Below are positions 1 through 7,479 of a DNA stretch of 10,392 nucleotides, piece by piece. The notes below the pieces were generated by a model. It had not been told where the DNA came from and did not search any database. It saw nothing but the letters and a program-made list of their open reading frames with translations. The stretch comes from a virus. Taxonomy: Duplodnaviria; Heunggongvirae; Uroviricota; Caudoviricetes. Location: positions 1-10,392 of the IMG/VR virus record IMGVR_UViG_2534681697_000028; one strand, written 5' to 3'. The first letter of the stretch is position 1. Each line of letters opens with the position of its first letter. Both the position numbers and the translations under genes were made by a program.

Positions 1-300
1 TTACCGCCGTAAGTGCTCCGGCTTCCTCCACTGGTAAGTATTTTTCGCGCTCTCCCTCCGTTGTTGAGAACGGCGACGATATGCCAGCAACTCAAGGACT
101 CTTGTTCGTATGTTGCGCATATCCACGCCGTTAAGCTCAATACCGTCACGGCGCATCACCTCAGCCACCACACGCGCGTAATTTTCAGCGGTGACGCTGT
201 CCGGCTGCGTGGCCACCTGTTTGCCTGTTGCCTGACAGATTCCGGTAATACGGCGGATTACTTTCAGTAGTTCGGCGTCGGTCATGGTTATGGTTTCCAT
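1..300 (-). CDS. hypothetical protein (99-aa ORF); probably the C-terminal part of a ~125-aa HTH protein that starts at GTG 385 in another frame
   Basis: Complete ORF with stop at 1-3. Its own ATG at 300 has no Shine-Dalgarno, whereas GTG 385 (track ORF 185..385) has GAGGTG 4 nt upstream and encodes an HTH-like N-terminus (MATQTEVARHLSLTDRQLRRLQKLFP). The two frames meet at a G5 run (307-311); removing one G fuses them in frame. Confidence 0.5.
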   Translation of the reverse strand: METITMTDAELLKVIRRITGICQATGKQVATQPDSVTAENYARVVAEVMRRDGIELNGVDMRNIRTRVLELLAYRRRSQQRRESAKNTYQWRKPEHLRR

Positions 301-463
301 AGTGATGGGGGAACAATTTCTGTAATCTGCGAAGCTGGCGATCGGTCAGACTCAAATGCCTGGCAACTTCAGTCTGAGTAGCCACTGTTCACCTCGCCCA
401 AAAATCTCCCCTCATGCGTTTTAAACATGCATCTTGCGAACAACTTTATGAAACGCGGCATAT

Positions 464-560
464 ATGTCCGGTTTGAGTGTTCAATTTTTGCGCATGTCCG
501 GTTCGCAGAAAGCGCATTTCTATATTTTTCAAATGGTTAACCTTCAGAGAAACCGGACAT
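464..560 (-). promoter_or_regulatory. three copies of a 10-bp motif ATGTCCGGTT (464-473, 494-503 direct; 551-560 inverted) upstream of the gene starting at 385; candidate operator array
   Basis: Exact 10-mer repeated three times in about 100 bp between the capsid-operon terminator and the next gene start. The third copy sits inside the hairpin gaaacc-ggacat-ggtttc (548-565). An 8-bp palindrome ggttaacc lies at 535-542. Confidence 0.45.
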
Positions 561-641
561 GGTTTCCGAAAAATTTTCATAAATAGTGAAATTCTGCGCC
601 GCTCCCGCCCCGTGGCAGGCCACCCCACCGGAAGGACCCGC

Positions 642-665
642 AAAAAAAGCCGGATTTCTCCGGCC
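642..665 (-). terminator. rho-independent terminator of the capsid operon
   Basis: Stem gccgga/tccggc (649-654 / 659-664) with loop tttc, preceded on the plus strand by A7 (642-648), which is a U-run on the minus transcript. It lies directly after the stop of the 137-aa gene at 671. Confidence 0.7.
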
Positions 666-670
666 TTTTC

Positions 671-1084
671 TCAGATGGTTTTCAGTATGCGATCGATTTC
701 GCCGTCATCACCCTGATATCTGCCATCGTATGCCATGCCAGGGCTTACGGCCTGCGGGCTGTGCATGTCCATAAAGTTTTCAAAGGCTGCGGTAAGCTCC
801 GGCGCAACCTTCGGGCGTTCCTGCTCTATGGTCATGTTCAGGATTTCCCGGGCATTATCGACGCTAATACATGGCACGTTTGCCATTGCACGTAACAGCG
901 GCTGATAGTCGTCAGATTCATGAAGCGCCATAATCGCATCAGTGCGCGGCTTGTCCTGCTCTTCCAGTTTGTTAAGTTGATATATAGCCTCGTAGGTTGA
1001 TAAACCTCTGTCCGCCATTGCCCGCGCTTCGGCTTTAAATTTACTCGCTAGCGGTAGCGCCATGATAGCTTCATTGATTGCCAT
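671..1084 (-). CDS. hypothetical protein, 137 aa, last gene of capsid operon
   Basis: ORF with SD AGGGGG 4 nt upstream of ATG 1084; starts 10 nt after the stop of the upstream gene; followed by the terminator. No family recognised by eye. Confidence 0.6.
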   Translation of the reverse strand: MAINEAIMALPLASKFKAEARAMADRGLSTYEAIYQLNKLEEQDKPRTDAIMALHESDDYQPLLRAMANVPCISVDNAREILNMTIEQERPKVAPELTAAFENFMDMHSPQAVSPGMAYDGRYQGDDGEIDRILKTI

Positions 1085-1096
1085 CGTTCCCCCTGC

Positions 1097-1387
1097 TTAT
1101 CGCACCAGTGGCTGAACGGATACGCCAGAACCCGCAAAAGCGGCGCATTTTTTCGCGTCGGTGTCGACGCTCTCGGGCCAGTTAACGGCGGCGATATTAA
1201 ATATCCCCGTCTTGTAACACTGTGCTGATTTCTGCTTTGACGTGTCCACGGGGTACGCCGTCAGATAAACAGCCTTGCCAGATTCCTGACCATCCCACGC
1301 CTTAAACTCGCCATTGTCCGCCAGCATCAGCGGAAAAATGTACCAGCGTCGTGGCAACCTGCTGTGTGCCTGCATATAACTCAACAT
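1097..1387 (-). CDS. hypothetical protein (96-aa ORF); likely true start at ATG 1400 in another frame (apparent frameshift at the A5 run 1334-1338)
   Basis: ATG 1387 has no SD. ATG 1400 lies 11 nt after the capsid gene stop, has a strong SD GGGAGA, and encodes MGTPYVELYAGTQQVATTLVHF before stopping after 32 aa. Removing one base of the A5 run joins it in frame to the 96-aa ORF. Confidence 0.5.
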   Translation of the reverse strand: MLSYMQAHSRLPRRWYIFPLMLADNGEFKAWDGQESGKAVYLTAYPVDTSKQKSAQCYKTGIFNIAAVNWPESVDTDAKKCAAFAGSGVSVQPLVR

Positions 1388-1411
1388 ATGGAGTGCCCAT
1401 AGAATCTCCCG

Positions 1412-2467
1412 TTAACCAATTTTCACAGTAACAAATTTGCGGATATCTGCCGGAACCGGCTGTGGTGCGCTGTGCGTCTGCACGTACTCAATCGCCGGAT
1501 CGCCGCTCTCAATCCAGTTTTTCGGGTAGTACATGTTTTGCGTTGCGCCCGTTCTTACCGCTTCCGGATCCATAATCGCGCCATAGGCCACCAGACCTTT
1601 ATTGCTGGTGTTGCCTAGGACAAGCAAATCAGGCTCAAGGAAATATTTTTCGGTGCCGTCGCTGTCGGTGTATTTGCCGGAATAGACGATAAGGGCCAGA
1701 TCACCCAGATAGCCTTTAAAGCTCACCACTTCGCCCAGGTTTTTACACGCCAGCTCTGCGGCGGATTCTGAACCACGGGAAAGATCGTACAGCTCGCGGA
1801 ATTTTTTAAAGCTACGTAAGGTGCGCCATACGTCAGCGCCCATAATCATGACGTTGGCGGGGCAGCTGGCCTGTTCGGCGTATAGCTCGATGTCATCTGT
1901 CGGATCATGCGTCTCTTTATTCTGCTCAGACCATTTTTTTCCTGGCCCCTGATGGACAATGCAGTTTGCCGGCATATTCCAGTCGATTTCATAGCGTTCT
2001 ATGCCTTCGCCTTCAATGATGTTTTTTCCGGTCGTGACCGCATTCACTGCCAGCCATTCCACACGCGCTTTAATGGCGTTTATCTGGCGGCGCATGTTGC
2101 CAGTAATGAGGCGCATACGTCGCCAGGTGGGGTCGTTAAGCAGTGCCGGATCTTCTCCAGCCATGCGCATGATGGTTTTTGATGGATCGATTTCGTGTTT
2201 GGGTTTCATGTAGCCAGGGCGGATAGTGCTTGTTTCGTACCCTTTATCACGCTGAACCTGGCTACCCACCACAGGCGAACAAAACGCCGACATGGTGACT
2301 TCTTCAATGTCCAGGGTATCCAGCATGACATCTTGTGTGTTGAAGGTTGCTACTTTCGGGAAAAACAGCGTGGTAAACAGCGGACTGAATTTAAATTCCG
2401 GGATATCCCCGCGATTCAGGTACGCGAAAAGCTGGTTAGTGTTAAGTGCCGTTGCTTTGTCTGCCAT
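1412..2467 (-). CDS. phage major capsid protein, lambda gpE family
   Basis: 351 aa, close to lambda gpE length (~341 aa as recalled), with recognisable gpE-like blocks: KFSPLF..FF, PGYMKPKHE, DPTDDIE, FRSFKKF, RGSESAAE, YKGYLGD..IVYSGKY, VLGNTS..GL.AYG, YPKNW..GDPA.EY. Start overlaps the upstream ORF stop (TAATG). Confidence 0.9.
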   Translation of the reverse strand: MADKATALNTNQLFAYLNRGDIPEFKFSPLFTTLFFPKVATFNTQDVMLDTLDIEEVTMSAFCSPVVGSQVQRDKGYETSTIRPGYMKPKHEIDPSKTIMRMAGEDPALLNDPTWRRMRLITGNMRRQINAIKARVEWLAVNAVTTGKNIIEGEGIERYEIDWNMPANCIVHQGPGKKWSEQNKETHDPTDDIELYAEQASCPANVMIMGADVWRTLRSFKKFRELYDLSRGSESAAELACKNLGEVVSFKGYLGDLALIVYSGKYTDSDGTEKYFLEPDLLVLGNTSNKGLVAYGAIMDPEAVRTGATQNMYYPKNWIESGDPAIEYVQTHSAPQPVPADIRKFVTVKIG

Positions 2468-2673
2468 TATTCACCCCCATGAGTCTGATTCATGCCAAGC
2501 GCCGCACGTAAATAGGCGCGTACCTGCCAGCCTGTTGACGGCTCAACCATCGCCAGCGGATCAAGTCCTGCCGCAATGCCCGCTTTTACGTTCTGCTGGT
2601 GGCGTTCCTTGAGCGCCTCCACGATATCGGGGCTTATGTAAACTGTCACCCCGCCTTTTTTCTCTTCTGTCAT
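2467..2673 (-). CDS. hypothetical small protein, 68 aa, first gene of capsid operon
   Basis: ATG 2673 with SD GAGGAA upstream; stop overlaps the capsid gene start (translational coupling). N-terminus GVTVYISPDIVEALKER has a strand-helix pattern; no firm family. Confidence 0.6.
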   Translation of the reverse strand: MTEEKKGGVTVYISPDIVEALKERHQQNVKAGIAAGLDPLAMVEPSTGWQVRAYLRAALGMNQTHGGE

Positions 2674-2700
2674 AGTCAGAAATTCCTCTTCGACTTAAAA

Positions 2701-2732
2701 AATTATAACTGGATGTACATCCAGTTATAATT
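2701..2732. promoter_or_regulatory. 32-bp perfect palindrome aattataactggatgtacatccagttataatt overlapping divergent -10-like hexamers; candidate operator of the capsid operon promoter
   Basis: Verified base by base as a perfect inverted repeat. TATAAT on the plus strand at 2732-2737 and on the minus strand at 2735..2730. Centre lies ~44 nt upstream of the start at 2673. Confidence 0.6.
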
Positions 2733-2835
2733 ATAATCATAGTTGCATTTTGCGCAATAGAATTGAGTTGCGTTGCAAATTATGAAATGATTTACGGCAA
2801 CAGTAGTCACCATGCTGTTAACCTCGTAAGCAAAA

Positions 2836-2874
2836 GCCCGATAAGCTTCCTCCTGTACTTATCGGGCTTTTTTT
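2836..2874 (+). terminator. rho-independent terminator (plus-strand T7 tail; may also act on minus strand)
   Basis: Stem gcccgataag / cttatcgggc (2836-2845 / 2858-2867) followed by T7 (2868-2874); on the minus strand it is followed by TTTTG. Confidence 0.6.
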
Positions 2875-2880
2875 GGGTAC

Positions 2881-2902
2881 AAAAAGCCGGATTTTCTCCG
2901 GC
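2881..2902 (-). terminator. rho-independent terminator after the SSB-tail gene
   Basis: Stem gccgga/tccggc (2886-2891 / 2897-2902) with A5 (2881-2885) on the plus strand, a U-run on the minus transcript. Near-identical in sequence to the hairpin at 649-664. Confidence 0.6.
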
Positions 2903-2910
2903 CTGTGCGT

Positions 2911-3280
2911 TCAGAACGGAATATCATCACCGTAGGGGTCATCGTCTCCCGCTGGTGGCTGATTACCCTGTGTGCCTGTGGTTTTGCGTCTGTTCCCGCT
3001 AGGGCGTGCCGCTCGGGCACTGATTACGCTGTCGGCAATAACCTGATAACCCTGCCGCGTTTCCCCGTTCTGTCAGCGTGGCAAAGTTTGCCGCTGCTGT
3101 GGTCATGAATGCGCTTATCAGGTCGGGATGTTCCTTCGCGTATCCTTCCCCCGCGTGGCGGTCTATCGTTCTGATTGCCACCTTTAAAGCGTGCTCTGTC
3201 ATGTCTAACGCGCGATATTTCGGTTCTGTTCTGTCTCTGCGTTTTTTGAGTGATTTATTAAATTTTCCTGAAGTGTGCAT
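2911..3280 (-). pseudogene. small protein with SSB-like C-terminal tail (Gly/Gln/Pro-rich linker ending DDDPYGDDIPF), apparently frameshifted near the C4 run 3063-3066
   Basis: 93-aa ORF (3280..2999) in one frame. A second frame with no start codon is open 3072..2914 and encodes ...RPSGNRRKTTGTQGNQPPAGDDDPYGDDIPF-stop, resembling the E. coli SSB tail (...DFDDDIPF). Removing one base of the run fuses the two. The N-terminal part does not look like an OB fold. Confidence 0.55.
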
Positions 3281-3327
3281 GTTTATTTTTACCCCCTCGT
3301 TTAAAAAGTTTTGAGTTGTGCCTCCCC

Positions 3328-3555
3328 TTGTCTACCTTATCTACCTTGCTGGCCCTCATGCCAGTAATGGCGCGGCTTTCAGCGGGGTAGAGTGCTTTTA
3401 TCCACTATCTACCCCGTGTCTACCTCCCTGTCTGATTCAGGTAAAATCAGGTAGAGAGGGTAGATAGTGGGTAGACAGTAAAAAAAAGCTGTCTACCTAA
3501 CTTAATGTACTGAATTAAATGTATTTTCCTTTACTCAGGTAGACAGGGTAGACAG
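3328..3555. repeat. iteron array, putative origin of replication (consensus GGTAGACAG / CTGTCTACC)
   Basis: At least 11 copies of the core TCTACC/GGTAGA in both orientations (e.g. 3331-3336, 3340-3345, 3408-3413, 3419-3424, 3492-3497; 3386-3391, 3450-3455, 3459-3464, 3470-3475, tandem 3538-3546 and 3547-3555) plus an AT-rich stretch at 3478-3530, immediately 3' of the primase gene. Confidence 0.75.
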
Positions 3556-3568
3556 CAATTACAAAAAA

Positions 3569-5323
3569 TTATAAAAACGCGTCGCACTCGTCTGTTGTTA
3601 TTGCGTTAGTCTGCGTTACCCCCTTAACTTTCCGCGTAATATATTCATGTCCGTAAACTTTTGCGGCAGGCTTCATAGCCTTGCCAAAGTCATTTACGTT
3701 TAGCGGTTTGCTCCTGCCTGCGTATGCCATAAACGCCAGATAGACGCGGTAAAGGCTGTTCCTGGTCGTGTACTTCACTGAATCACCACCGCCACCCATC
3801 ATCAGGCCGCGCGCTTCCTCCAGAAAATTCAGGAACTGGCAAAACTCAATAACCGGATCCGTCTGTTGCTTTATTGCCAGTGCTTCATCACCGTCATGCT
3901 GTTCCAGTAGTAAAGCCCGTGCCTTCTCAGGGTCGGTAAAGTTCGCCAGCAATCGGCGGATAATAACGGGGATTTCAGCCGCAATCTTTTCCGGTAGCTC
4001 CCTGTCTTTTTCGGCCTCACTGACGATATTGTCGAAACGGAAAATCACGCGACGACGTGCCACACCTCCGGCCCGTTCGGTGAATATCATCGGGTTGTTG
4101 TCGGTCGCCAGCACCACCGCCCTGATTACCGCCGTGAAACGCTTTTCATATTTCGGGTTAATTTCCACGGGGTCGCCGCCCGTGATTTTCTTGATGCCCG
4201 TTCCTTCGCCTGTATATTTCGGCTGGTCAGCCAGGACGATAAGACGACTCCCGACAACCTGCGCACGTCCACCAGCATCATCAAGCGATGTCATTTCAGC
4301 GCTTACCGTGTTCTGTTTCCCTGCCAGAAGGCTGGCTATGTGTGTGAATGTACTTTTACCGCTCCCGCCGTCTCCGGTGGCCTCAATAAACATCTGCCAG
4401 TCGTACCGGTTCGCCATAATCATGTAAAGCGCGGCACATATGCGCATCATCTTGCGCGGGTCTTTTCCGGCTGCGTGATCAAGCCATTTATGAAAGTTTG
4501 GCGCGTTGTCGCGGATATTCTCCCCTGGTGCTGGTGGCGTGTACTCAATGCCGTTGTGCGTGGTGATCCAGTTCTCCGGCGTGTGCGGGGAAAATTCCCC
4601 CGTTTTCAGGTTAAGCACACCATTAGTGAACGGTAGCAAATCACTGGACGGCTCGCCCATCGGGTCAGCAATAACTTTTAACGCTTCAACGGCGTTATTA
4701 ATTGCCCGCTTGCTGAATGTGGCCCCGTGTTCTGAATAAACCGCCACCATTTCGCGGCTCAGTTCCATTGTGCTGACCGGACACCATATCCCGCCGCGCC
4801 ATACGTGAACGATTTCACTTTCCGGATGCACACAAACGCCATCAAATCGACCAGCAAGCATCTGTGCGCGCTCACTGTCTGCCATCTGCGAAAGTTGCGC
4901 CTTTTGCTTTACCGGAAGCTCAATGACCAGACCATCAGAAAGATTCTGGCGTTCACGGGCCAGATATTCGCGCCAGTTCTGCACCTCCTGGCCGTGCATA
5001 CCCTCAAGATAAAAATTTGCATCCTGTACACCTGCCGCCGCCAGCTTCTGACCAATCGCCTTGATCATTACAGGCTCAAGATGTCCGGCTCTGTATATGC
5101 GTGCTGATTTTCTGCCATCCGGCACAATTTGCAGATTATCCAGTTCGGATAGCTGCTGCTCTCCAAGCCACACAGGAGGCTCATTATCTCCGGCTGTACG
5201 CGCGTCATGTTCCTGCCACTGTTTCGCGTGTGCCCAGGCATCACTACCCGCAAAGATAATTACCTCTGTGTCTTTGTGTTTTATTCCGCGTGGCTGTTTT
5301 TTTACGTTCGGTGCCAGTTTCAT
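3569..5323 (-). CDS. P4-family primase/helicase (D5-like SF3 NTPase) replication protein
   Basis: 584-aa ORF with Walker A GDGGSGKST and downstream VLADQP / VLATDNNP motifs typical of phage/plasmid primase-helicases. SD AGGGG; start overlaps the upstream ORF stop (ATGA). Sits beside the iteron origin. Confidence 0.88.
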   Translation of the reverse strand: MKLAPNVKKQPRGIKHKDTEVIIFAGSDAWAHAKQWQEHDARTAGDNEPPVWLGEQQLSELDNLQIVPDGRKSARIYRAGHLEPVMIKAIGQKLAAAGVQDANFYLEGMHGQEVQNWREYLARERQNLSDGLVIELPVKQKAQLSQMADSERAQMLAGRFDGVCVHPESEIVHVWRGGIWCPVSTMELSREMVAVYSEHGATFSKRAINNAVEALKVIADPMGEPSSDLLPFTNGVLNLKTGEFSPHTPENWITTHNGIEYTPPAPGENIRDNAPNFHKWLDHAAGKDPRKMMRICAALYMIMANRYDWQMFIEATGDGGSGKSTFTHIASLLAGKQNTVSAEMTSLDDAGGRAQVVGSRLIVLADQPKYTGEGTGIKKITGGDPVEINPKYEKRFTAVIRAVVLATDNNPMIFTERAGGVARRRVIFRFDNIVSEAEKDRELPEKIAAEIPVIIRRLLANFTDPEKARALLLEQHDGDEALAIKQQTDPVIEFCQFLNFLEEARGLMMGGGGDSVKYTTRNSLYRVYLAFMAYAGRSKPLNVNDFGKAMKPAAKVYGHEYITRKVKGVTQTNAITTDECDAFL

Positions 5324-5619
5324 TTTTTACCCCTGAATACGTTAAGCATCTTTTTTATTTCCTGAATATTGGCGCGTGCTTTCTCCCTGCTGGTGGGCAC
5401 GTTACGCGGTACGGCCTGCACAAGAGAAAAATCACGGTCGAACTGATAAACAGGCATCACGCAATCATATTCGTAGCCTTCACGACGGTAGGTTACGCGC
5501 CGTTCCTCCACGCCCTTAATTATTACCGTGCCGCCGTACTTATCGCGGTAAATATCCCCGCGCATGAATTTAGTGCGAGTTTTGCCGCTGGCAGTTAAGC
5601 CAGGATATTTAAGTTTCAT
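5320..5619 (-). CDS. hypothetical protein, 99 aa, translationally coupled to the primase
   Basis: ORF with SD GGAGAA 9 nt upstream of ATG 5619; stop overlaps the primase start. Positionally analogous to small accessory genes upstream of the P4 alpha gene, but no sequence identification. Confidence 0.6.
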   Translation of the reverse strand: MKLKYPGLTASGKTRTKFMRGDIYRDKYGGTVIIKGVEERRVTYRREGYEYDCVMPVYQFDRDFSLVQAVPRNVPTSREKARANIQEIKKMLNVFRGKK

Positions 5620-5624
5620 TATTT

Positions 5625-5858
5625 TTATTCTCCGGTGTGGGGCGCTTTATACTGGTCGTGTAATGTCTCTATTTCCTGCAACTCATTTATTACAGACTCA
5701 AGAAGCGTTATTAATGCCGTGACAATCCTTGATTTCTGTTTATCACGCTCATTATCGCCAAATGTTTCCAGACACATTTGCAATATTTCCAACATATTTT
5801 CACTGTGAGAAAGTGCAAGAAATGCGCGGTCTGTTATTTCAATGTAAATATCACGCAT
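5625..5858 (-). CDS. hypothetical protein, 77 aa, first gene of the replication operon
   Basis: ORF ending 6 nt before the next gene's start; weak SD (GGGG). Function unknown. Confidence 0.5.
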   Translation of the reverse strand: MRDIYIEITDRAFLALSHSENMLEILQMCLETFGDNERDKQKSRIVTALITLLESVINELQEIETLHDQYKAPHTGE

Positions 5859-5894
5859 AACCCCGTTACTTTATTCGTACCCCTTATAATGGGG

Positions 5895-7440
5895 TGTTAG
5901 CCAGCCAGACCCGGCATGATTACTGCCCCCAGTCGTCCATGATCCGGGGGGTGATGTCACCGGGTCTGGTGGGGCGCTGGTAACCGCTAATAGGGGTCAG
6001 GTCAGGCACTTTTGCCGGGACCGTCTGTAACGTGGATGCCGGTACCTGCTCCCCGTGGTTATCTGGTTAACCCATATACAAGGGAGACAGAATGACCGAA
6101 TCCAGCGATTACGAATCCGTCCAGGTCTTTATCGGCGTTGATGTCGGTAAAGATACGCATCACGCTGTTGCCATTAATCGTTCAGGTAAACGCCTGTTCG
6201 ATAAAGCATTACCCAACGACGAAAACAAACTCAGGTCGCTAATATCTGACCTGAAACAACATGGTCAGATACTGCTGGTTGTTGATCAGCCAGCTACCAT
6301 CGGTGCGTTACCTGTCGCCGTTGCCCGCTCAGAAGGAGTCCTTGTCGGATACCTCCCTGGACTGGCCATGCGCCGCATAGCCGACTTACACGCCGGTGAA
6401 GCTAAAACTGATGCTCGTGACGCTGCCATCATTGCCGAAGCTGCCCGTACCCTGCCTCACGCGCTACGCACGCTGAAACTGGCTGACGAGCAAATCGCCG
6501 AACTCTCCATGCTCTGCGGCTTCGATGATGATCTTGCCGCACAGAAACGCAGGCCAGCAACCGTATCCGCGGCCTTCTGACCCAGATACATCCGGCACTG
6601 GAGCGCGTTCTCGGTCCGAGACTTGAGCACCCGGCGGTACTCGATCTTCTCCAGCGATATCCCTCACCAGAAAAACTCGCTTCGCTGGGTGAGAAGAAGC
6701 TGGCAGCCCAGCTCTGCAAACTTGCGCCTCGTCTGGGTAAACGCCTTGCAGCAGACATAGCTCAGGCACTGGCCGAACAAACCGTCGTCGTTCCCGGCAC
6801 GAATGCCGCTGCCGTAGTACTGCCACGTCTGGCACTCCAGCTCATCACGCTGCGTAAGCAAAGAGACGAGGTGGCGCTTGAGGTAGAACAGCGAGTTCTT
6901 GCTCACCCTCTTTACCCGGTCCTGACCAGTATGCCCGGAGTCGGTGTCAGGAGCGCAGCCAGACTCCTCACCGAGGTCGCCTGCCGCGCCTTCGCCTCTG
7001 CCGTACATCTCGCTGCTTATGCTGGCCTTGCGCCGGTAACTCGGCGATCCGGCTCGTCAATACGCGGTGAGCATCCCCCGCGACGGGGTAATAAAGCTCT
7101 CAAACGGGCGTTGTTCCTGTCGGCCTTCGCCGCGCTCAGGGATCCGCTCTCCAGGGCTTACTACACCCGCAAAATGAGTCAGGGAAAACGACACAATCAG
7201 GCGCTTATCGCCCTGGCGAGACGACGCTGCGACGTTCTGTTCGCCATGATGCGCGACGGGACTTTTTATACCCCGCAGGGGTCATAACATGCTTGACAAC
7301 TTAATAGGGGCACGTTACGCCCCGCCATAATGCGGGTATGGGTAGGTTTACGGACACAAAAAAACCGCATATCGGAATGTAAGCGGCTGTCCGCTTTGCT
7401 ATTCAGGCTGTCAAACCCGGTCGCCATGTGGGCGACGGGG
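5895..7440 (+). mobile_element. IS110-family insertion sequence (boundaries approximate)
   Basis: Contains the IS110-type transposase reading frame 6092..7287 with non-coding flanks. The family lacks terminal inverted repeats, so the ends cannot be fixed by eye. Confidence 0.7.
6092..7287 (+). pseudogene. IS110-family transposase (DEDD-type recombinase), split by an apparent 1-nt deletion in the A-run 6545-6547
   Basis: N-terminal ORF 6092..6580 carries the DEDD/RuvC-like start FIGVDVGKDTHHAVAI. The conserved continuation ...TQASNRIRGLLTQIHPALERVLGP... and the C-terminal MPGVGVRSAARLL...AAYAGLAPVTRRSGSS block are in a frame open from 6532 to 7287. SD AGGGAG precedes ATG 6092. Confidence 0.85.
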
Positions 7441-7479
7441 GAAGAATACAGCCCCACGGTAATTTTTTGCAAGTTGTTT

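Follow-up and report, generated by a model that had tools for sequence, protein, structure and literature searches.

The locus considered here lies in a stretch of 10,392 nucleotides (hereafter the window; positions 1 to 10,392 of IMG/VR virus record IMGVR_UViG_2534681697_000028), in which three copies of the 10-mer ATGTCCGGTT occupy the 255-bp gap between an intrinsic terminator and an open reading frame (ORF) with a GTG start at position 385. The question it raises is what these copies are for. An initial annotation took them for a multimeric regulator site in front of a gene with an AlpA/MerR-like helix-turn-helix (HTH) N-terminus, possibly an autoregulated or late-activator locus. Comparison with phage genomes leads to a different answer: the minus strand from 640 down to 386 is, with high confidence, a complete lambda-type cos site, in which the three copies stand for the R3, R2 and R1 elements of cosB, and their role is very probably to direct DNA packaging and not gene regulation. 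The locus would thus be re-read as a packaging site followed by a stub of a terminase gene, carried by a satellite element, in place of the tempting annotation of an HTH regulator with its operators.

Motif copies and anatomy of the predicted cos site

A scan of the window retrieved ATGTCCGGTT as exact copies at 464-473 (+), 494-503 (+) and 551-560 (-), in agreement with the two direct copies and the inverted one initially described. From start to start, 30 bp separate the direct copies, and the inverted copy lies 57 bp from the nearer of them, so that the minus strand reads one forward copy (560 to 551) and then two inverted copies. The repeat unit is approximately the bare 10-mer (pairwise extension reaches at most 11 nt), and the only other near-copy in the 10.4 kb is a single one-mismatch match at 5081. 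The three exact copies compare with a mean of 0.01 in dinucleotide-preserving shuffles of the window, none of 200 shuffles reaching three, which leaves a chance repeat with next to no probability. The same holds for an RNA or terminator hairpin without DNA-binding role, for which a palindrome around the inverted copy could be invoked (GAAACC and GGTTTC at 548-565, with 6 bp arms and a 6 nt loop), a weak terminator-like hairpin of which the terminator scan also detects a 5-pair version. The hairpin of the initial annotation is therefore real in the sequence, but TCC takes the place of ACC in its left arm in 33 of 51 distinct related sequences, where the 10-mer is invariant; because the arm is not conserved, the hairpin around the R3 copy is, as judged from these alignments, incidental. 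No Rfam family matched the motif and cos region. Chance and hairpin alike were excluded by conservation and by the covariation described below.

The minus strand from 640 to 386 aligns with the joined ends of phage lambda, with cosQ, the nick context and the I2 segment in register (Table 1). Positions are given on a scale in which bp 1 of the cohesive end (lambda bp 1) corresponds to window position 610. In the alignment cosQ reads GGGTCC-TTCCGGTG, and the nick context is ACG/GGGCGG, the slash marking the predicted nick. An independent marker of the cut site comes from phage cdtI, whose linear genome, as deposited, terminates at precisely the base that aligns with window 611. The cohesive end's left half, GGGCGG, is the same as in lambda, and the right half departs from it at bp 7, 8, 9, 11 and 12, positions at which natural variability, functionally tolerated, has been described (Feiss and colleagues, PMC4669245). 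The columns of the I2 region are near-invariant across the 51 relatives.

Order and spacing of the subsites are those of lambda: in both, cosQ precedes the nick by about 30 bp, the CG/GGGCGG context is conserved and the I2 segment is near-identical. Element R3 falls at bp 51-60, against bp 50-65 in lambda and bp 48-60 in phage N15, and R2 at bp 108-117, inverted, against bp 109-124, likewise inverted. A site resembling the I1 site of integration host factor (IHF; bp 72-84) lies between R3 and R2, as does the lambda I1 match (bp 79-91), on the same strand. In lambda and in the phage version of the window cos, the gene for the terminase small subunit (TerS) starts just past cosB, its start codon corresponding to bp 226 in the window and bp 191 in lambda. 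The differences concern the elements themselves: lambda R sequences are 16-mers of the CGTTTCC type, whereas those of the present class are the compact 10-mer ATGTCCGGTT, unrelated in sequence, and R1 stands 30 bp from R2 instead of about 42 bp.

Two observations on the cut region can be added. A cosQ one nucleotide shorter than that of lambda, as in the window, is also found in 6 of the 51 related phage sequences, where it occurs together with the cohesive end GGGCGGGAGCGG (599-639); this pair may mark a sub-lineage with non-lambda cohesive ends, unable to anneal with lambda-type ends. In one relative (L092, a Logan SRR34902440 contig) the predicted cohesive end is GGACGGCAGACG and the nick is preceded by GG and not by CG, unlike the CG flank reported as highly conserved, and this may be a defective copy.

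Phage origin, the terS stub and the pairing of TerS with its motif

Positions 314-640 (-) are 98.8% identical (4 mismatches over 327 bp) to a lambdoid prophage of E. coli CFSAN029787, and in the base-by-base alignment the homology ends sharply at about 640 and at 314-316. The prophage carries, in this order, lysis genes, cos, terS, terL, head-tail joining and portal, and its terS start codon corresponds to window 385. The HTH ORF begins at this very codon; past codon 24 it is no longer phage sequence and runs out of frame across a 94-aa gene of the island (phrog_1561). The same stub is marked as an incomplete pseudogene by the NCBI pipeline in the closest relative (L003), and no terL follows it in the window. 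Since the phage homology stops after TerS codon 24, the HTH ORF is, on this alignment, a recombination scar and not a gene, and the ambiguity of its frame, already perceived initially, is that of the recombination joint at about 314-316. Lacking the wing and helix 3 of the modelled protein, the stub is predicted to be unable to form a DNA-binding domain. The alignment thus indicates that the satellite acquired its cos through recombination with a phage, the copied segment being 314-640 and the non-functional terS stub having been carried along.

These data bear directly on the initial reading, in which the copies would form an array of operators for an HTH transcription factor that is encoded downstream and is autoregulated or acts as a late activator. 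In its favour, the sites are three and identical, with one inverted, and the ORF they precede starts with an HTH of a MerR-like domain class. The ORF, however, is a 24-codon terminase small-subunit fragment fused out of frame, no sigma-70-like promoter was predicted by the promoter scan in 250-750, and the intact phage gene carries the Nu1 family domain and is followed by terL and portal. Moreover, the sites keep a fixed distance from the cohesive-end cut and not from the start codon, which ranges from bp 145 to bp 226 among relatives. We consider the operator array very improbable, and with it the autoregulated or late-activator locus. What survives of the initial proposal is the kind of site, since the copies are putative sites for a multimeric winged-HTH protein whose gene start lies downstream, albeit with a packaging role.

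The intact prophage gene codes for a TerS of 169 aa, matched by Pfam Phage_Nu1 with 65.8 bits where the cut-off is 30. With lambda Nu1 it shares 44% identity over the C-terminal 95 residues (E 1e-26), whereas over the first ~65 residues no sequence similarity was detectable. A PDB sequence search with this protein, with the TerS-like protein of the Nissle island (see below) and with the 99-aa ORF downstream of the cos region found nothing meaningful. The AlphaFold model, built from 30 homologues, predicts for the N-terminus a helix at residues 4-10, a second at 15-22, a loop or wing and a further helix at 38-54, with a pLDDT of about 80 over residues 1-50. Almost all Foldseek neighbours of this model are MerR-class winged HTH proteins (RdfS, RacA, BldC, CueR, MtaN), RppC ranking 35th, and the matches are weak (best E = 0.26). 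They are consistent with, and no proof of, the MerR-class winged HTH of gpNu1 and Rpp, whose fold class is known (PMC9026076). Within the limits of these E-values the HTH is retained as putatively MerR/excisionase-like, in line with the initial assignment, but the protein is a TerS of the Phage_Nu1 family and no transcription regulator.

In 80 IMG/VR loci encoding this TerS (at least 94% identity), R3 and R2 are 57 bp apart and R2 and R1 30 bp apart wherever the copies are exact, and there are several classes of distance from cos to the start codon. Among the 51 distinct upstream sequences, 26 of 30 columns are invariant in the motifs, against 36 of 81 elsewhere in cosB (Mann-Whitney p = 2e-5, a value on column conservation that is not corrected for relatedness), and R3 is invariant in all 51.

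The strongest evidence comes from more distant relatives. The set comprised the window, PhiR12_1 and 12 loci with full-length TerS homologues retrieved by protein search (60-78% identity), from the genera Escherichia, Salmonella, Klebsiella, Citrobacter and Enterobacter. A forward element at bp 51-52 and an inverted element at bp 108-109 are present in 14 of 14 loci, and the IHF consensus, with 0 or 1 mismatch, is found at bp 72-74 on the bottom strand in 11 of the 13 diverged relatives (perfect in 4). A TerS with ...LRRLQK is paired with ATGTCCGGTT in 7 of 7 cases, and one with ...LRDLQK, ...VRDLQK, ...LRNLQK or ...FRNLQK with ATTTCCGGTT or ACTTCCGGTT (A[T/C]TTCCGGTT), again in 7 of 7. Base 3 of the motif therefore covaries with TerS residue 20 of the recognition helix, G going with Arg and T with Asp or Asn. 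For the last four loci the motif type was written down before the DNA was inspected, and all four predictions were correct. R1 is found at the same spacing in most close relatives and in three further loci (L007, L102 and L106), and is absent from about half of the diverged relatives; because of this absence, the sequence comparison marks it as accessory.

Where TerS carries an unrelated N-terminal domain, unrelated repeats occupy the same coordinates, as in lambda and in an E. albertii phage (L010 1200-1430), the latter with GGTTGTTGTT at bp ~50, ~110 (inverted) and ~188 in a lambda-like orientation pattern. Contrasts of this kind were drawn from a scan of genome contigs that gave four loci, two with TerS genes truncated by an insertion sequence and uninformative, and two with a different DNA-binding domain; a further contrast is a CFT073 prophage that carries phage-21-type TerS and cosB. 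Such covariation is the pattern expected if the TerS helix reads the elements, and it is hard to square with another role. As a side observation, the island of strain Nissle 1917 (L006 2347-2889) carries a full-length Nu1-family TerS-like gene with another N-terminal domain (...AFDKWGV...), the same as that of the phage with GGTTGTTGTT.

The host island and the proposed packaging of its DNA

The credible genes of the window all lie on the minus strand (Table 1). The same gene order is found beside tRNA-Pro, between yejM and yejO, in many E. coli genomes, and the layout matches gene for gene that of EcCICFT073 in strain CFT073, with which the window shares int, DUF4222, the D5-type primase, the gpE-like, gpD-like and 137-aa genes, cos and an ORF of 93/94 aa. 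On this gene content the element is a member of the EcCICFT073 family of phage-inducible chromosomal islands (PICIs) found in Gram-negative bacteria. Among 5,426 complete E. coli genomes, 33 have the junction of the satellite 137-aa gene to the present cosB type, at 84-88% identity.

Table 1. Features of the cos region and of the surrounding island; bp values count from the predicted cohesive end (bp 1 = window 610)
Feature	Window position	Strand	Details and basis
cosQ-like element	626..639	-	GGGTCCTTCCGGTG, lambda GGGTCCTTTCCGGTG, one T fewer; alignment to lambda right end
cosN	597..612	-	Predicted top-strand nick between 611 and 610; 12-nt cohesive end GGGCGGGAGCGG (610 to 599), CG on both flanks
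I2-region segment right of cosN	566..588 (bp 23-45)	-	CACTATTTATGAAAATTTTTCGG, lambda CGCTATTTATGAAAATTTTCCGG
R3, putative TerS-binding element, forward	551..560 (bp 51-60)	-	ATGTCCGGTT; at lambda R3 position
I1-like IHF site	527..539 (bp 72-84, bottom strand)	+	TTTCAAATGGTTA, one mismatch to WATCAANNNNTTR; between R3 and R2
R2, putative TerS-binding element, inverted relative to R3	494..503 (bp 108-117)	+	57 bp from R3
R1, putative third TerS-binding element, oriented like R2	464..473 (bp 138-147)	+	30 bp from R2
terS stub	314..385	-	GTG start and 24 codons, VATQTEVARHLSLTDRQLRRLQKL, covering helix 1, turn and recognition helix; mechanical ORF extends to 185
Intrinsic terminator ending the capsid-gene block	642..669	-	GCCGGAGAAATCCGGC hairpin, then T7; terminator scan hairpin 649-664; inverted repeat I6
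137-aa gene (phrog_1999)	671-1084	-	
gpD-like decoration gene	1097-1387	-	
Lambda gpE-like capsid gene	1412-2467	-	
D5-type primase	3569-5323	-	Pfam
DUF4222 gene		-	Pfam
Integrase, cut by window end	9490-10392	-	ORF list and Pfam

The terminator lies directly upstream of the start of phage homology. The motifs adjoin the capsid block past this terminator, as the initial annotation had it in placing them just downstream of the capsid operon, but they stand on the strand opposite to the reading direction of the genes as it was framed there. The 137-aa protein gave a weak match (E 1e-9) to phrog_53, which comprises lambda-type head protease/scaffold proteins, at their C-terminal end, and its gene is labelled 'head-tail connector' in some genomes; together with the gpE-like and gpD-like genes it suggests a small capsid-remodelling set of the island.

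On the other side of the cos, the ORF of 94/99 aa (phrog_1561, function unknown; window 1-300 on the minus strand) follows the cos region in every island variant examined, whichever the cosB type, and in the closest relative no further island gene separates it from the chromosomal yejO.

An IS110-family element at about 5900-7400 (+), with its transposase split over two ORFs (DEDD_Tnp_IS110 at 6092-6580, Transposase_20 at 6871-7287), lies between a c4 a1/b1 target and the downstream replication genes; in the closest relative an IS110 lies within the primase gene instead. Three Rfam matches above the gathering score occur at 7400-7911 (-), namely a C4 antisense RNA (7723-7810), isrK (7835-7911) and the c4 a1/b1 target (7400-7449), and by these matches the region is a P1/P7-type antisense immunity module in the control region of the island. 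A mechanical ORF of 437 aa (7480-8793) is doubtful because it overlaps these Rfam-matched RNAs, and is almost certainly not a gene.

By analogy with lambda, packaging would proceed as follows. A helper TerS would bind R3 and R2 across the bend that IHF makes, as winged-HTH dimers through its N-terminal domain (VATQTEVARHLSLTDRQLRRLQKL...), and so anchor the large subunit, TerL, on cosN; TerL would introduce nicks staggered by 12 bp, on the minus strand past 611 and on the opposite strand past 599, and would then drive the concatemer of satellite DNA into a capsid as far as the following cosQ-cosN. The TerS would be supplied in trans by a helper of matching specificity. Because the island has neither TerS, TerL nor Rpp, the helper would have to supply an unmodified, matching terminase, and the element thus probably relies on direct mimicry of the helper cos and not on Rpp-mediated redirection. 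Its cos would then compete with the helper for unmodified TerS, and not re-target TerS and block the phage. Candidate helpers are phages whose TerS starts VATQ.EVA.HL.LT[DE]RQLRRLQK.

An Rpp-type mechanism, in which the sites would be read by a satellite protein, alone or as a heterodimer with the helper TerS, as at cos1 of EcCICFT073, has in its favour the membership of the window element in that family, where RppA redirects terminase to the island cosB (PMC6739421), and the conserved 94-aa ORF that always follows the cos region. No rpp homologue was found in the element, however, and the place of rppA is held by the terS stub. The 94/99-aa ORF, weighed as a hidden Rpp, was rejected, since it had neither an HTH match nor a PDB match and is present for any cosB type. 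In addition, the motif is identical to that in the cosB of prophages without Rpp, and RppA did not promote transfer via cos2 of EcCICFT073 (PMC6739421), which carries these same motifs. We therefore hold this mechanism to be highly unlikely, and return to direct mimicry of a helper cos.

Several points weigh against the packaging-site reading. The cosQ lacks one base relative to the form that the literature on lambda-like cos calls highly conserved. The IHF match, with its one mismatch, is not significant alone (8 hits in the window against 8.9 expected). R1 shares the orientation of R2, while that of lambda, phi80, 21 and Gifsy-1 points the way of R3, so that the arrangement is no strict copy, although the same orientation in phage relatives of this TerS class makes it a class trait and not damage. 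No TerS sequence match to lambda gpNu1 or to Rpp chains was found in the PDB, and all Foldseek matches of the TerS domain are above E = 0.1. The 14 covarying loci are phylogenetically related, so that independent changes are fewer than 14. The most similar prophage has a frameshifted portal gene, and the donor lineage may be partly defective. Lastly, computation covers cos homology (in position and in sequence), phage origin, conservation and TerS-motif covariation, and from these we infer, by analogy, the binding, cleavage and packaging of this sequence.

Some of these points could also be taken to mean that the elements are cosB R elements by descent, and that the window copy, a scar within an island in decay, is inert and has lost its packaging role. 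The one-nucleotide deletion in cosQ, the five of six right-half cohesive-end positions that differ from lambda, the frameshifted portal gene of the best-matching prophage, the split-transposase IS110 in the island (and that in the primase gene of its closest relative) and the terS cut down to a stub would all fit such a relic. On the other hand, the three 10-mers, their spacings and the I1-like site are all intact, with only four mismatches to the phage copy over 327 bp, and variation in the cohesive end's right half is reported as tolerated. The cosB type is found with the 137-aa gene in 33 complete E. coli genomes at 84-88% identity, pointing to persistence through divergence, and a satellite of E. 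coli S1-CAM-02-A (L001) keeps this cosB without the terS stub, suggesting that the sites themselves are retained. We regard the inert relic as unlikely. That this copy is active in packaging is, by analogy, rather probable, the doubt being due to the shortened cosQ, the possibly defective donor lineage and the IS110 damage elsewhere in the island.

Comparison with known cos sites and satellites

The closest comparison is with EcCICFT073 itself, whose capsid and decoration homologues and cos sites have been described by Fillol-Salom et al. (PMC6092414), and in which the order is cos1, rppA and then an inverted cos2. In the window this whole cos1-rppA-cos2 stretch is replaced by one forward, phage-derived cos with the terS stub attached. 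The window cos shares with cos1 the place in the island, after the 137-aa gene and the terminator, the type of cosQ and cosN, and the presence of a gene starting with a winged HTH right after cosB. It differs in its three phage-type R sites, whereas R sequences are not repeated in cos1, which depends on RppA; this protein pairs with the helper TerS as a heterodimer and redirects it to cos1 (PMC6739421, PMC9026076).

With cos2 the likeness is in the elements: read in its own direction, cos2 carries ATGTCCGGTT at bp 51 as well as AACCGGACAT at both bp 108 and bp 138, and over 185 nt it shares 75.7% identity with the window cos. It is, however, inverted, lies downstream of rppA as the second site beside cos1 and has the cohesive end of lambda, GGGCGGCGACCT, whereas the window cos is the only one, in forward orientation in the place of cos1 and rppA, and ends in GGGCGGGAGCGG. 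A degenerate fourth copy, AACCGAAAGT, is also present in cos2 (L105 48130-48340, E. coli CFT073). That cos2 acts as a cos is known from low-level plasmid transfer by lambda and phi80 and from the loss of island transfer on deletion of both cos sites (PMC6092414); RppA gave no stimulation of transfer through it (PMC6739421). Its sequence is printed in the supplements of both EcCICFT073 papers, where PICI cosB is called 'completely divergent' and the repeats pass without comment (Fillol-Salom et al. 2018, 2019; PMC6092414, PMC6739421); in the searchable library we found no text that identifies the cos2 repeats or describes this cosB class, cos2 having been published as raw sequence.

The potB-side lambdoid prophage of CFT073 (L105 8728-9237) codes for a TerS of exactly this class; in its own cosB, R2 and R1 have one mismatch each. 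This may account for the second cos of the model island, whose R elements are those of a further lambdoid prophage in the same strain. We tentatively extend this to the family, for which it is conceivable that satellites have two interchangeable packaging strategies, Rpp redirection at cos1 and plain mimicry of a specific helper's cosB. Under the same tentative proposal, cos2 would be a mimic matched to the TerS of the other resident CFT073 prophage, the window element would be an Rpp-less derivative that took its cos straight from a helper and is wholly dependent on that helper class, and the tracking of motif base 3 by TerS residue 20 could serve as a usable recognition rule for which prophage mobilises which island. 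The pairing of helix and motif offers, in any case, a simple and testable rule of packaging specificity for a widespread class of enterobacterial prophages.

The satellite L001 (5590-6200) has two cos sites that face each other and belong to different cosB types, the forward one of the ATGTCCGGTT type, with a fourth copy, AACCGGAAGT, and the inverted one of the GGTTGTTGTT type. This may reflect dual-helper hedging; were the two-strategy reading true, satellites with two cosB types, such as this one, would hedge between two helper classes.

In wider terms, the strategy proposed here, presentation of the helper's own terminase recognition site, has parallels among other satellites. P4 is packaged by the P2 terminase through a helper-type cos. 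SaPIbov5 with its cos phages (an example cited in PMC6092414) follows the same strategy, and in both pairs the phage families and cos chemistry differ from those described here. Unlike in these cases, the capture event is still visible in the window, as a near-identical segment of 327 bp with a terS stub.

Furthermore, the 10-mer belongs to a cos unit of about 250 bp shared by many prophages and satellites, in effect a longer repeat family unrelated to regulation. Among lambda-like phages, its closest parallels are the cosB classes of 21, N15/Monarch and Gifsy-1, in which the N-terminal domain of TerS varies in step with the R sequence, whereas cosQ, cosN and TerS's C-terminal half remain similar. 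Some relatives of the window class have R3 and R2 only, recalling the simplification of N15. The R sequence and the recognition helix are distinct from those of all these classes, and the window thus adds a further cosB specificity class, here in a PICI, within a general picture of cos packaging and PICIs that is unchanged.

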